Positions 4,302 to 37,289 of a stretch of 64,000 nt of DNA are shown piece after piece. Within the stretch, counting starts at the first letter, position 1; each line of letters begins with the position of its first letter. The translations under genes and the position numbers were made by a program. This DNA is from a virus: positions 33 to 64,032 of IMG/VR virus record IMGVR_UViG_3300033565_000007. One strand, written 5' to 3'. The notes beneath the pieces were generated by a model. The model was not told the DNA's origin. It saw nothing but the letters and a program-made list of their open reading frames with translations, and made no database searches.

Positions 4302-4604
4302 TTAAGTCGCGGGCTGATCGGGTTGTTGATCAACGGGTTGAGGTTGATTTTCTGCACGAACCAACTCGGCGCCGTTCGCCAGATAGTGTTCGAGTTCGTC
4401 GTCGGGGATCGACACGTAGCGGTAGCCCATGCCGTGCGCCGCTGTGCCGGCGGGGATGGTCACCGCATGGAACGGGGAACCCTTCAGCTCGCTGATGTAC
4501 TTCACATAGGCCAGGACCGGCGCCAACGTGGCGTGGATCGGCTCAGGGTTCGCAATGTCGCGCTGCTTGCGCAGGGTCTTGGCTAAGTCTCGAAACTGCT
4601 TCAT
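4302..4604 (-). CDS. Hypothetical protein
   Basis: Start MKQFRDL preceded by AAGGGA. Confidence 0.55.
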   Translation of the reverse strand: MKQFRDLAKTLRKQRDIANPEPIHATLAPVLAYVKYISELKGSPFHAVTIPAGTAAHGMGYRYVSIPDDELEHYLANGAELVRAENQPQPVDQQPDQPAT

Positions 4605-25269: not shown

Positions 25270-25644
25270 ATGCAAACCAATCTCCAGCGCAAACCCGTCG
25301 AGATCGATCCCCGCAGTTTGATCGACCCGATCGCCGACTATCACCTGTCGAACTGGAAGCGCTGGATGGAGAGCTACGAGGTCCGTACTGGCTATGACCA
25401 TGAGTCGGCCGTCGTCGGGAACTACAGGGCATCGACTTCCCTGGATGACATGTACGACAGCAAGGACCGCAACGACGCGATGATCACGAACGCGGTCATC
25501 GAGGATCTGGCGCCGATCCACCAGGTCGCGATTCACAACGTCTATCTGGCCTGCGTCTGGAGATTCCGCGGCGACCTCAATACCGTGTTCGTCGAGGCGG
25601 TCGAGAAGTTCTGGGCGGCGGGGCAGAAGAGGGGGTTGATATGA
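25270..25644 (+). CDS. Putative late antiterminator (Q position)
   Basis: Last gene of the nin block after the resolvase; L.NWKRWM...DA.I.DL...AI..VY pattern. Function inferred. Confidence 0.6.
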   Translation: MQTNLQRKPVEIDPRSLIDPIADYHLSNWKRWMESYEVRTGYDHESAVVGNYRASTSLDDMYDSKDRNDAMITNAVIEDLAPIHQVAIHNVYLACVWRFRGDLNTVFVEAVEKFWAAGQKRGLI

Positions 25645-25704: not shown

Positions 25705-26202
25705 ATGGCCAGCAGGAGAGAGATTACCGACGCCGACCTCGCTACGTGCTTGAACGAAAATACAGTAGAACTTATTCAGGCGATGAAAGTTGGTTTTACC
25801 ACGCAACAACTCAAGACTCGAACCGGTCTTTCTTATCAATTGATAAGAGGAACCTTCAGCGCATGGGATCAGGCTGTAGGGATCGCTAAATACAAGAAGA
25901 ATACGAACGGAAGAATGGCGTGGTTTTTGGACTTCCTCGGTCTTCTGGAAAAATATCTTGACCTGGTCAACGACTTTTATCTACTGCAGCAGGCGGCAAG
26001 GGGTAGGGCGAACAAGGCTTGGATTGACATCAAGGAGCAACGACCGGAAGACGGCCAAGTCGTTCTAATCCTCATTCGAACCGAATACAAATACGCGCCA
26101 ACGCGATTAGATATCACGATCGGGCAATACAAGTGGGGTGAATTTGGTAGTTCGCGCTATCCGACCCACTGGATGCCACTGCCTGAACTGCCGGAGCCCT
26201 AG
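25705..26202 (+). CDS. AT-rich protein with C-terminal DUF551 domain
   Basis: WIDIKEQRPE...PTHWMPLPELP. Confidence 0.75.
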   Translation: MASRREITDADLATCLNENTVELIQAMKVGFTTQQLKTRTGLSYQLIRGTFSAWDQAVGIAKYKKNTNGRMAWFLDFLGLLEKYLDLVNDFYLLQQAARGRANKAWIDIKEQRPEDGQVVLILIRTEYKYAPTRLDITIGQYKWGEFGSSRYPTHWMPLPELPEP

Positions 26203-26315
26203 TAATCCGGCTTTCATCCTACCGTCATCGCCTGTTGATCTCGCTGACATCATGGACTATCATCATTCATGCGGGAGTCCTGAACTTACAATCCGAAAAG
26301 AAAGGGTAGTTCGTC

Positions 26316-26600
26316 ATGACCAGCACCGAGATTGCCCATTGCCCGTTCTGCGATAGCGCCAATACAAGAGTGATGTCCTCATGGACAACTTGGCATGTGG
26401 AATGCGAAGACTGCCGGGCCGCAGGGCCGACGGTCTACCGTCGAGAGCGTGATGGTGCGCGGAACGACAAGTCCAAAACGATAGCCGAGTGGAATAAAGC
26501 CGCCAGAATGCCTTGTCGCAATGCCGACGCAACAGGATGCAATCTCGTGCCGTCTCGCGAGCAATGCTTTCCGGAGCAATCCGCTCCCCAGACCGCTTGA
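26316..26600 (+). CDS. Lar-family restriction-alleviation-like zinc-ribbon protein
   Basis: CPFC...VECEDC.A.GP...AEWNK. Confidence 0.7.
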   Translation: MTSTEIAHCPFCDSANTRVMSSWTTWHVECEDCRAAGPTVYRRERDGARNDKSKTIAEWNKAARMPCRNADATGCNLVPSREQCFPEQSAPQTA

Positions 26601-26625
26601 CAATCGAATAGCCACGGTTTAGCAT
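26597..26625 (+). promoter_or_regulatory. Late promoter 1 (pR'-like)
   Basis: TTGACA-17-TAGCAT. Confidence 0.88.
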
Positions 26626-26653
26626 TTTGTCGTGGGCGTCGTGCGCCCCAAAG

Positions 26654-26689
26654 AAACCCGCTCAGGTGAAAGCCTCGGCGGGTTTTTTT
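26654..26689 (+). terminator. tR'-like terminator
   Basis: AAACCCGC..AGGT-GAAA-GCCT..GCGGGTTTTTTT. Confidence 0.88.
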
Positions 26690-26690
26690 A

Positions 26691-27010
26691 CGTCCGCGCC
26701 GGATGCAGCCGCAGGTAGGGCAGGCGACGAAGGGCCGGCTGAAGCGCCATGCCGGTGGAGTGGCACACCCAGGGTGAGATCGCACGGACGGAGCCGCGGT
26801 CCGGTTAATGAGCCCGACGACACGACGCAGGTTATACCCAAATCAGGCAGGCCAATTCCCAAATTGGGCCGAACTGCCGCTGGACGCTGTAACCAGCATC
26901 AACACGAATGCCTCAACGTCGTCAATACGATCTTTTTACAATCCCCGGCGACACGCCTCGGGGCTGATGAATACCGAGGCGGCATTCGTGCTGGTACTGC
27001 GCAACCCACC
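26691..27010 (+). ncRNA. Candidate structured RNA, late leader part A
   Basis: Helices 26691-96/26785-90 and 26900-12/26981-93 (12 of 13 pairs); inner 8-bp helix 26954-61/26974-81. Confidence 0.5.
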
Positions 27011-27024
27011 CCAAGGAGATCCAG

Positions 27025-27267
27025 ATGCACTATCGCAATGGCCGTGAAGCAAAGAATGGCGACAAGATCGTGAAACTCGAAGGCGGCAAGGTCGTCTCCT
27101 TCGGCGTCTTACACAGCGCGACGCCGGGGAATGACTTCTGCAACGGCAATATCGCCGTGGTTCAGCCGGCGAACGACTACGCCTGCATGTGCGATTGCCT
27201 GCACATCGACGACGTCGCCGAATTGCTGGCCGAGAAGGGGTTGGATAAGCGCCCCGCCGGCAAGTAA
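27025..27267 (+). CDS. Conserved small protein (MHYRNGREAKNGD type), function unknown
   Basis: AAGGAG SD; 80 aa with Cys/His/Asp cluster DYACMCDCLHIDD. Confidence 0.85.
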   Translation: MHYRNGREAKNGDKIVKLEGGKVVSFGVLHSATPGNDFCNGNIAVVQPANDYACMCDCLHIDDVAELLAEKGLDKRPAGK

Positions 27268-27269
27268 GC

Positions 27270-27650
27270 AAAACCCGCAGCCCTTGCTGGGTCAAAGCAG
27301 GGGCAACACGAATTCCGCTTGCGGCGCATGCAGTGCCGGCCTTACTACCCGGTGCCGGATTCGGCGGAATCCGTGTTGGCGTGACAGCGCAAGTCGAACC
27401 ATTGAGGCATCAACTGGACGCAAATCCCGGCGTCGAATGCCATTCCGCAAGGATGCGGAGCCACAGACAAGCCCGCCTCGCATAGAGGACTCGCCAACAA
27501 CCCTTTCGATCCACCACGAAAGGCTAGGTGATCCACGAAGCGCGCCCAGCGCGCGACGCCGCGAGGCGGTGTATCCCGAAGCAGGAAAACGAACCTCCCT
27601 CGTTCTCGCTAGAGAGCGTTTCAGCCGCCCTACGGGGCGGCTTTTTTCTT
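27270..27650 (+). ncRNA. Candidate structured RNA, late leader part B (about 380 nt, ends in a terminator)
   Basis: 15-bp helix 27304-18/27364-78, several GNRA-capped hairpins, and AGCCGCCC-TACG-GGGCGGCT-TTTTT at 27623-48. Confidence 0.6.
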
Positions 27651-27665
27651 TTCTGGACAAGGAAG

Positions 27666-27869
27666 ATGAAACCGCACGAAGAGCGCGTGATCGCCGAGAA
27701 GGCCGAACTCGAAGCGAAAATCGCACGCCTGTCCACTTTCATCCGCTCGCCAGCCTACCGGGAATTGCCGATCGAAGAGAAGCAGCTCCTGCTGCGCCAG
27801 GAAGTGCTCATGTGCGAGCTCGTGCAGTGCCTGGTTGAGCGCATCGCGTTGTTCAAGGCGGTGGCGTGA
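27666..27869 (+). CDS. crAss001_48-like small helical protein
   Basis: MKPHEERVIAEKAELEAKIARLSTFI...EEKQLLLRQ...LVERIALF. Confidence 0.8.
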   Translation: MKPHEERVIAEKAELEAKIARLSTFIRSPAYRELPIEEKQLLLRQEVLMCELVQCLVERIALFKAVA

Positions 27870-36023: not shown

Positions 36024-36052
36024 TTGCAATTTCGCAATTAGGGGATTAGCAT
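36024..36052 (+). promoter_or_regulatory. Late promoter 2
   Basis: TTGCAA-17-TAGCAT; downstream sequence homologous to late promoter 1. Confidence 0.8.
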
Positions 36053-36123
36053 TTCCTTCGTGGGCCGAGTCGCGCCCAGACAATCCCGAATTCACGCACG
36101 GCCATTGCGACAACATGGCCACA

Positions 36124-36180
36124 GAAACCCGCCTTCGTGCGGGTTTTTGCGTTTCTGAGCCGCCTTCGGGCGGCTTTTTT
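36124..36180 (+). terminator. Tandem terminators before the head genes
   Basis: AAACCCGC-CTTCGT-GCGGGTTTTT and AGCCGCC-TTCG-GGCGGCTTTTTT. Confidence 0.88.
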
Positions 36181-36215
36181 ATTGCCGCATCCACGCGATA
36201 ACTGGAGATCCCGAA

Positions 36216-37289
36216 ATGGCAGAAGCAAACAGCACCGACCTTGAAACGCAAATGGCAAGTTTCGATCCGACGAACCCGGAAGCGCTCGCGGCCTTGGAAA
36301 AGGCGGCGATGGGCGGCGAAGACGTCGCGGCAGAGGCAACTCCGTCCGCCGACGACACGCCCGAGCCCGAAGCGGCACCGGCCAAGAAGGACGAACCCGC
36401 GCCACAGGACGATAAGACAGTCGCAGCGCCGCCGGCCGACAAGCCGGCCGAGCCCGGCGAAGGTACGCCGTCCGGTACCGGCAAACCCAAGGGCGTGCAG
36501 GCAAGGGACGGGGATCACATCATCCCGTATTCCGTGTTGGAGCGTGAGCGTGACCGTGCGTCGCGCGCCGAGGCAACCGCGAAGGCGCTGGCCGAACAAC
36601 TGCAATCCCTGCAGTCCGGCAAGACCGTCGAGGCTCAGGCACCGGCGAACGCCGGCAACCTCACCGAGGAAGACCTGGCGCAACTCGATACCGACCTGCC
36701 GGGCGTCGCGAAAGTGATTCGCGCGCAGATGGCGGCGATCGAGGCGATGCAAGGGACGATTCACACGCTCCAGCAAGAGAACGAAATCGAGCAGCAGAAT
36801 CGCCAAGCGGCGGCGCTGGACCAGACCGAAGCGGCCATCATGGCCAACGCGGACCTGAAAGCCTGGCGCGACGCGGCGACCCGGAAAGACAACCCGGATC
36901 CGCTGATGTGGAACCGGGCAGCCGGTCTGGATGAAGTTCTGCGCGACGATCCGGATTGGAAGGACCAGCCACTTGCCACTCGCTTTGCCAAAGTCGTGGA
37001 ATCGATGCGCTCGCTCTACGGTGTCCCGGCCGCTGCTACGCCGACGCCGCCCGCACCGGTCCCGCCCGCTCCACAACCCGCAACCGACCTGAAGCAGGTC
37101 GCCGACGCCAAACTGAAAGCCGAGCCGGCCCCCGTGCCGACGACGCTTTCGGACATTCCAGGGGGCGCCGCGCCTGCACAGAGCGACATCGAGACCATCG
37201 AGAACACCAGCGCCGTCGCGCTCGGGCAGAAGTTCTTGTCGATGTCGCCGGACCAGATGGACGCCTACCTGGCCCGCATCGGTATCTGA
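36216..37289 (+). CDS. Scaffolding protein
   Basis: Acidic/Pro-rich, DGDHIIPYSVLERER, coiled coil, directly upstream of the MCP. Confidence 0.85.
   Translation: MAEANSTDLETQMASFDPTNPEALAALEKAAMGGEDVAAEATPSADDTPEPEAAPAKKDEPAPQDDKTVAAPPADKPAEPGEGTPSGTGKPKGVQARDGDHIIPYSVLERERDRASRAEATAKALAEQLQSLQSGKTVEAQAPANAGNLTEEDLAQLDTDLPGVAKVIRAQMAAIEAMQGTIHTLQQENEIEQQNRQAAALDQTEAAIMANADLKAWRDAATRKDNPDPLMWNRAAGLDEVLRDDPDWKDQPLATRFAKVVESMRSLYGVPAAATPTPPAPVPPAPQPATDLKQVADAKLKAEPAPVPTTLSDIPGGAAPAQSDIETIENTSAVALGQKFLSMSPDQMDAYLARIGI

Follow-up and report, generated by a model that had tools for sequence, protein, structure and literature searches.

In lambdoid phages the leaders of the late operons are textbook regulatory regions, which are known mainly as a promoter, a Q-binding site and one terminator. 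The put RNA of phage HK022, about 70 nucleotides (nt) long and folded into two stem-loops, lies 5' of the first terminator and renders RNA polymerase resistant to termination, and RNase III processing stems separate genes of T7 and also occur in the lambda N leader. In lambda and the Shiga toxin (Stx) phages, PR' is always active and its transcripts stop at tR' unless Q acts (PMC7547250). T4-type phages carry PeSLs, units of an early promoter and a stem-loop that are repeated many times per genome and for which repeat-mediated shuffling has been described (PMC2839356, PMC4122927). The subject of this study is a stretch at positions 26691-27650 of a 64,000-nt window, which covers nearly the entire 64,037-bp phage record IMGVR_UViG_3300033565_000007 of IMG/VR, a sequence with terminal repeats and 62% G+C. 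This stretch is probably the 5' leader of the first late transcription unit, a modular RNA in which one helix, here called P-long, is doubled around an acquired gene. A late-operon leader is a known kind of element; its RNA domains, a covarying pair of helices and the embedding of the gene are new with respect to Rfam and the phages in GenBank.

The layout of the locus resembles that of the lambda and Stx late region (PMC7547250), in which a strong sigma-70 promoter 3' of a small regulator gene precedes a short leader, an intrinsic terminator and the late genes. On the plus strand of the window, the gene for a 124-aa candidate late-gene regulator (25270-25644), named Q-like from its position alone, is followed by genes for a DUF551 and a Lar protein, the promoter, a small hairpin, terminator T1, the leader, terminator T2 and the genes for a Sequestin-family protein, the two terminase subunits (TerS, TerL) and the portal protein. 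The late promoter (TTGACA-17-TAGCAT, 26597-26625) is of sigma-70 type and agrees with the consensus at 10 of 12 positions, and the first transcribed bases form the hairpin GGGCG-loop-CGCCC (26634-26648). T1 (26650-26690) is a tR'-like intrinsic terminator, an inverted repeat (I5) and then a T run; T2 (27623-27652) has an 8-bp stem, a UACG loop and a T run and directly precedes the first invariably present genes (Sequestin, then terminase). A sigma-70 promoter, an intrinsic terminator within about 50-200 nt and the head of the late genes are thus all found here, and more than ten relatives are built alike. Between T1 and T2, 334 nt without a convincing gene are followed by an open reading frame (ORF) of 80 codons and by 398 nt of non-coding DNA. 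The resulting 732 non-coding nt agree with the figure of about 700 nt in a first-pass annotation of this DNA, which had also taken the region for a late leader of the lambda/933W type. The promoter and terminator just 5' of the stretch bear that out, as does the corresponding slot of relatives, some of which have a tRNA-Met gene or small accessory genes there; in the window itself ARAGORN found no tRNA or tmRNA gene. In the lambda and Stx arrangement (Q, PR', 6S RNA or StxS, tR') the slot after the terminator likewise holds tRNA and accessory genes such as stx. In contrast to that arrangement, the presumed regulator of the window has no detectable relation to the Q family, a second terminator (T2) is present, and an extra cassette lies at 36024-36190. 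Moreover, 250-950 nt of conserved RNA modules stand between the terminators here, whereas no counterpart has been described in lambda or 933W.

Relatives of the leader were gathered via the small terminase (L082; relatives are referred to by L numbers), by pattern scans of IMG/VR, genomes and metagenomes, and via close homologues of the 124-aa protein. About 20 phage or prophage contigs were obtained, one of them in a Gallionella metagenome-assembled genome (MAG). Their order is nearly constant: a regulator-like gene, a sigma-70 promoter, a hairpin of the GGGCG/CGCCC type 3' of it, T1, structured RNA, T2, and lysis genes or terminase. Promoters equivalent to that of the window occupy the same place in L082, L108, L125, L141, L146, L147, L148, L156, L158 and L159. 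Homologues of the 124-aa protein lie directly 5' of the promoter, T1 and leader in L108, L109, L125, L132, L136, L142, L146-L149, L156, L158 and L159. Most relatives have a terminator at the T2 position, and the one ahead of the Sequestin gene in L156 is homologous to T2.

A MAFFT alignment of whole leaders was unreliable past Domain 1, and the modules were therefore aligned one by one. The leader consists of conserved modules with compensatory changes, of which the relatives hold differing subsets. L156, the closest in gene order (regulator, a 94-aa gene, leader, Sequestin, terminase), has a leader of about 250 nt with only T1, Domain 2, Domain 3 and T2. A different 5' module replaces Domain 1 in L146 and L148, the L147 group has a third kind, and L141 has no module but Domain 1, which is flanked by the promoter hairpin and a single terminator. 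From Domain 1 to T2 the distance varies between about 60 and about 900 nt. Covariation in the collected contigs supports the structured RNA of the first-pass annotation, which had been unable to assign it to a named family. No Rfam family fits: at gathering thresholds Rfam 15 gave no match in the 64 kb, and at E values up to 10 its matches were all of terminator type and lay at T1 and T2, with nothing in 26691-27550. Likewise, blastn of 26600-27700 against 50,697 GenBank phage records returned no match. The leader therefore presents several RNA domains without an Rfam entry, whose conservation exceeds that of the surrounding proteins and in which compensatory changes are seen.

The most conserved parts of the leader are Domains 1 and 2 (26688-26898), which lie outside the features flagged in the first-pass annotation. 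Domain 1 (26688-26822, plus strand) is a multi-helix RNA of about 135 nt, represented by 13 distinct sequences and folded into seven helices. Its consensus has 31 pairs, of which 11 are compensatory, and 98.5% of the cells are paired; none of 500 shuffles matched this, and no more than 3 compensatory pairs were left when the partners were slid. Stretches of 22-25 nt are invariant in all 13 sequences, whereas the neighbouring proteins are just 30-65% identical. A covariance model, R1, scores 146.8 bits at Domain 1 of the window. Among 100 loci it detected the window and L082 only, and among 151 Burkholderiales genomes only the Gallionella MAG that was also the one true match of the genome contig scan, which gave six further matches by chance. 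The metagenome scan also drew 5' ends of 23S rRNA, for which R1 gave 15.9 bits (E = 0.59). The invariant core of Domain 1 (26723-26775), GGCGACGAAGG-hairpin-GGAGTGGCACAC, is similarly spaced in the 5' ends of some bacterial 23S rRNAs (L130, L133, L143, L144). We consider this likeness a weak resemblance and not homology; it may be due to chance.

The conservation of Domain 1 might have a cause other than a cis-acting leader. Domain 1, perhaps together with Domain 2, could be a stand-alone, stable non-coding RNA that is excised from the late transcript, like the tRNA that shares its slot. Such an RNA would act in trans, with a target in the host or the phage; a decoy and an anti-defence RNA are examples, and the leader would then be mainly a cargo bay. 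Its 5' boundary fits such an RNA: Domain 1 starts 0-3 nt past the 3' end of tRNA-Met in four loci (L111, L136, L138 and L142) or right after the U-tract of T1. So do the invariant stretches in the midst of diverged proteins, and so does an accessory-like distribution, the domain being present in the window and missing from its close relatives L146, L148 and L156. In L141 a unit of about 190 nt, made up of promoter, hairpin, Domain 1 and terminator, resembles a small-RNA gene, and the adjacent cargo includes an anti-defence sponge gene. On the other hand, Rfam holds no relative, and a trans-acting RNA would be compatible with a cis-acting leader and does not exclude it. We regard a stand-alone RNA as possible, though not as the probable explanation.

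A second proposal likens the conserved domains to the HK022 put RNA: as cis-acting elements of processive antitermination, they would bind the transcribing RNA polymerase and render it resistant to T2 and later terminators. Like put, Domain 1 is a conserved stem-loop RNA in a phage leader 5' of terminators. Its extreme conservation is independent of the divergent regulator protein, as that of put is independent of a phage protein, and suits the binding of a conserved host machine; in L141 it even lies between the promoter and the sole terminator. However, with about 135 nt and seven helices Domain 1 does not fit the description of put, and it usually follows T1, L141 being the only locus where it precedes a sole terminator; in most loci it would be unable to act on T1. 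Furthermore, the close relatives L156 and L146 do without Domain 1 and still keep T2, so that it is dispensable there, unlike put, and no such RNA accompanies the two terminators of the second late cassette (36024-36190). An RNA of the put kind is accordingly unlikely. A related and equally doubtful idea is that Domain 1 represents a new class of phage RNA that binds a highly conserved host machine, either as a put-like modifier of RNA polymerase or as a decoy that mimics the 5' end of 23S rRNA. If this were true, the decoy could soak up a host factor or a defence nuclease in late infection, and P-long with its alternative helix, described below, would be a true RNA switch.

Domain 1 could also be conserved as a peptide. 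A 19-codon frame (MPVEWHTQ..., 26749-26808) lies within it; the stop position is the same in six of eight lineages, and frame and stop are shared by the window, L108, L109, L111, L132 and L135. Yet indels break the frame in L125 and L141, no Shine-Dalgarno sequence lies at a usable distance, and the ATG is inside a helix arm. The Pro-to-Ser change of L135 is exactly the compensatory change that its hairpin requires, and the amino acids vary where the stems covary. Conservation as a peptide is therefore very improbable, and a cis-acting leader RNA remains the preferred explanation of this domain.

Domain 2 (26842-26898, plus strand) has an outer helix, GGCAG/CTGCC, an inner hairpin and a terminal hairpin, CTGG-ACGCTGTAA-CCAG. 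Among 12 sequences, 6 of its 10 predicted pairs are compensatory and the loop of the terminal hairpin, ACGCTGTA, is invariant. L160, L162 and L170 are additional members. In two of them, both distant members, a two-codon ORF (ATG AAG stop) behind a strong Shine-Dalgarno sequence is found just upstream of the domain: L160 (about 4380-4400, in the orientation used) and L170 (about 1790-1810). In the minimum-free-energy fold of the window, a hairpin, CCCTTGCT-loop-AGCAGGGG, lies at 27281-27303 on the plus strand and overlaps a direct repeat (D2); it is probably a decayed copy of the terminal hairpin of Domain 2, to judge from its likeness. Domain 3 (about 27500-27590, plus strand) has the form GAAAGG..GGTGATCC..GNRA hairpin..TCCCG.AGC.GGA and is common to the window, L146, L148/L149 and L156. 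Three hairpins of this part of the leader had been credited with GNRA or UACG loops. This applies to the UACG terminator hairpin (27623-42) and to a GNRA hairpin at about 27559-69 (GCC-GCGA-GGC), and not to 27502-23, a 7-bp stem with an 8-nt loop that is neither GNRA nor UACG.

Two long helices that begin with the same 10-mer, CAACACGAAT, had drawn attention to this region, and both were recovered as described: helix A (26900-12 / 26981-93) with 12 of 13 Watson-Crick pairs and helix B (27304-18 / 27364-78) with 14 of 15. They are the only helices in 26691-27650 that have 12 or more of 13 pairs and a loop no longer than 100 nt; dinucleotide shuffles gave a mean of 0.12 such helices, and two were reached in one of 100 shuffles. 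Their likeness exceeds the 10-mer. The 5' blocks (26891-26912 and 27295-27316, direct repeat D2) are 77% identical, and the 3' blocks, flank included, align with a score of 23 that 5 of 500 shuffles reached.

The relatives place these helices in a family. P-long lies directly 3' of Domain 2, and in seven distinct sequences its 7-bp basal stem occurs in three fully complementary versions, while its distal stem has six lineage-specific versions that are all perfectly paired. The position of an internal mismatch is fixed across the versions, and a G-U pair in L146 is compatible with plus-strand RNA only. P-long is present once in L146, L111, L125, the L131/134/139/142 group and L160, and not at all in L156, L147, L148, L108, L109 and L132. 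Among the leader relatives, only the window has it twice, with the 80-aa gene and a ribosome-binding site of its own in between. Helices A and B are, by sequence, two copies of P-long. Copy A (26900-26993, plus strand, with a homologous 3' flank to about 27008) continues Domain 2, and its 5' context is 92% identical over 38 nt to that of the single helix of L146. Copy B (27304-27378, plus strand) runs on into the sequence that follows the single helix of L111 and L125, and of the two copies only B retains the downstream partner for the alternative helix. Copy A would thus have kept the ancestral 5' context and copy B the ancestral 3' context, which suggests that the doubling arose upon acquisition of the gene; this order of events is what we infer from the aligned loci. 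The first-pass annotation had considered a repeated cassette of RNA element plus small gene. This does not hold, given that the relatives have the helix once or never and that the two copies bracket a single acquired gene; the second small gene, the Sequestin gene, sits 3' of T2, as it does in L156, which has no helix. A wider family of CAACACGAAT hairpins was also sought in IMG/VR and rejected: the pattern CAACACGAAT..ATYCGTGYTG gave 11 matches, about the number expected by chance, none of them related.

In this arrangement the window recalls the PeSLs of T4-type phages, in which a repeated stem-loop flanks a variable small ORF; here the two copies of P-long stand on either side of the 80-aa gene. 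Recombination between copies can account for gain and loss of the ORF, and direct repeats accompany the 80-aa gene elsewhere. Unlike in PeSLs, however, no promoter-like site was found at or near 26880-26900 or 27285-27305, the window has two copies only, and the helix belongs to a larger conserved leader RNA. The likeness to RNase III stems is one of shape only: long imperfect helices (7 bp, a mismatch, 5-10 bp) bracket a gene in a polycistronic transcript, and the position of the mismatch is conserved. In contrast to those stems, the distal part of P-long is variable: it may be a loop of 10 nt or comprise over 60 nt of additional structure.

The repeats might alternatively act as DNA, as sites for terminase (pac/cos) or another DNA-binding protein beside the packaging genes. 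A small terminase gene is indeed nearby, and a CAACA-type motif occurs three times in direct and twice in inverted orientation. But in L111, L125, L108 and other loci the modules lie ahead of lysis genes, and terminase genes are found only in some loci, kilobases 3'. Moreover, distal stems that differ wholly in sequence and are nevertheless complementary are unlike a sequence-specific site in double-stranded DNA, and the G-U pairs are possible on the plus strand only. It would be surprising if these repeats worked as DNA, and we continue to treat P-long as an RNA helix.

The 3' strand of helix B had been noted as complementary to a downstream heptamer (GTTGGCG/CGCCAAC), as a possible switch. 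The complementarity is real and reaches 8 bp on the plus strand, between TGTTGGCG (27374-27381), which comprises the last 5 bases of P-long B and 3 further nt, and CGCCAACA (27492-27499). The proposed alternative pairing covaries in four lineages: it is formed by TGTTGGCG/CGCCAACA in the window, TGTTGGTG/CACCAACA in L146, ATTGGTG/CACCAAT in L111 and TATTGGG/CCCAATA in L125, and its register and distance (+116 to +136) are constant across them. Copy A is no longer complementary to the alternative partner. Because the alternative pairing covaries and the basal stem of P-long covaries too, these comparisons indicate that two mutually exclusive helices are both under selection.

This pair of helices is the evidence for reading the leader as a riboswitch-like attenuator, in which a ligand or factor would favour either P-long or the alternative helix and thereby control T2 termination or the translation of the following gene. 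In addition to the compensatory changes that maintain both helices, the alternative partner of L111 lies about 15 nt 5' of the Shine-Dalgarno sequence of a holin-like gene, the first late gene there, and T2 follows in most loci. In the window, however, the partner is 124 nt 5' of T2 with Domain 3 intervening, and no direct competition with the T2 stem was found. The distance between Domain 1 and T2 is highly variable, and Rfam scans detected no known aptamer. An attenuator in this strict sense therefore seems unlikely, if slightly less so than an antitermination RNA of the put kind.

The ORF between the two copies of P-long (27025-27267, plus strand) is preceded by the ribosome-binding site AAGGAGA (27013-27019) and has a coding-type composition, with G+C of 0.80 at third (GC3) and 0.37 at second (GC2) codon positions. 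Its 80-aa product has 433 relatives in IMG/VR, the best 80 of which are 81-95% identical, and 6,334 homologues in a large protein collection, mostly with more than 80% identity (80-95% among the best 120 listed). Among the retrieved loci, 81 matches share the DNA of the ORF and the flanks are unrelated; the gene is therefore a mobile passenger. It is absent from every leader-family relative examined. The leader thus shows a widespread small accessory gene slotted beside a doubled RNA helix. No Pfam, PHROG or NCBIfam model describes the family. C39, C54, C58 and H60 are invariant in it, and from these residues the protein may bind zinc. The predicted structure is of low confidence (pLDDT 64, pTM 0.37), and an Atlas feature search gave only clusters labelled 'hypothetical' and weak leads (DUF7205, YdfZ).

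Elsewhere the 80-aa gene is found in many unrelated phage contexts (L002-L081, L150-L155), near tRNA genes in L033, L067 and L074. Direct repeats of 12-33 nt flank it in L010, L029, L002 and L006. Their 3' copy includes the ribosome-binding site of the next gene and reaches its start codon, a pattern as though the ORF had been inserted exactly at a start codon with duplication of the ribosome-binding region. Since such repeats (at least 12 nt) were seen in only 4 of 67 distinct loci, this duplication signature is not general. In L013, L011, L004 and L030 a 12-nt inverted repeat, ATACTTGACTCC ... GGAGTCAAGTAT, brackets the gene and is followed by a TATATAA-type motif; it might form a long-range stem, or else mark a promoter or terminator specific to these phages. 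Two contigs that carry the gene also encode a tRNA with anticodon CTA, of amber suppressor type and labelled Pyl by ARAGORN (L067, 5787-5861; L074, 3813-3887).

Several observations weigh against the reading of this stretch as a conserved leader RNA with a helix doubled around an acquired gene. The family is small (about 20 contigs, and one of 151 sampled Burkholderiales genomes), and the covariation comes from few independent lineages. The presumed regulator did not group with known Q proteins in a fold search, and in the window two extra genes separate it from the promoter. A single match of the alternative helix is unremarkable (P about 0.05-0.1 each). The arms of copies A and B show a likeness of only about 77% and the interiors are unrelated, which makes a recent simple duplication unlikely; for this reason a join at the helix of two diverged leader variants is no less likely than duplication on the spot. 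Finally, the first-pass annotation had called the region packed with hairpins. Thermodynamically this is true of 27268-27665, where the fold of the plus strand has z = -4.58 (0 of 100 shuffles) and that of the minus strand z = -1.84, and untrue of 26691-27024 (z = +0.71), where even Domains 1 and 2 together (z = +1.46) show no gain over shuffles. That the 5' segment folds like its shuffles is what would be expected if the hairpins were chance products of GC-rich DNA without function. With two long helices where 0.12 are expected, the strong fold of the 3' segment and covariation in the relatives, chance is hardly credible.

On balance, the stretch is likely to act in cis as a late leader and, at the same time, as a slot for cargo. 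By analogy with lambda, the promoter would fire constitutively and the majority of transcripts would end at T1, until a regulator, probably the upstream 124-aa protein, permits RNA polymerase to read through T1 and T2. The leader modules would fold on the nascent RNA during transcription. P-long could exchange its basal 5 bp for the downstream partner and so constitute a two-state element, which probably controls processing, stability or read-out of the downstream RNA, and Domains 1 and 2 would probably be bound by a conserved factor of the host or the phage. The slot between the terminators would serve cargo, namely tRNA, RNA modules and small accessory genes. The leader offers testable RNA elements for the control of late transcription, RNA processing or host take-over in phages of Betaproteobacteria, and it bears on the binding partners of such RNAs and on the movement of accessory, probably anti-defence, genes between phages.

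As for the flanking genes, those for an HNH-type nuclease and a RuvC-like resolvase lie upstream of the 124-aa gene. The 124-aa protein matched nothing in Pfam, PHROG or NCBIfam, nor in a profile search of PDB sequences. In the fold search its best local likeness was to sigma region 4 (3hug, probability 0.93), and of the known Q family Q21 came up only with E about 3 and TM 0.26-0.37. The DUF551 and Lar-family genes occupy 25705-26600, between the regulator-like gene and the late promoter. They are probably insertions, because they failed a GC3 filter that their neighbours pass and because in the relatives the promoter directly follows the regulator.

The 67-aa protein encoded 3' of T2 (27666-27869, plus strand) belongs to the Sequestin family (PF21825), with a Pfam score of 58.2 bits against a cut-off of 24.8 (E = 7.5e-16, residues 3-61). 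The family is reported to bind 3'cADPR, and in SequestinB mutation of E11, Q45 or R59 abolished anti-Thoeris activity and mutation of R7 did not (10.1101/2025.07.12.664507). The protein of the window has R7, E11, Q45 and R59, the four pocket positions that were mutated, and may bind 3'cADPR; this likeness concerns the downstream gene only, not the leader RNA.

The second cassette of late type, at 36024-36190, has a promoter (TTGCAA-17-TAGCAT), the same small hairpin (36062-36078) and two tandem terminators. It has no structured leader and lies directly 5' of a gene that starts at 36217. Ahead of T2, most leaders (L108, L109, L125, L131, L132) contain a pyrimidine-rich, anti-Shine-Dalgarno-like motif, CUCC(C/U)UCC; that of the window, at 27591-27605, lies inside a hairpin loop.

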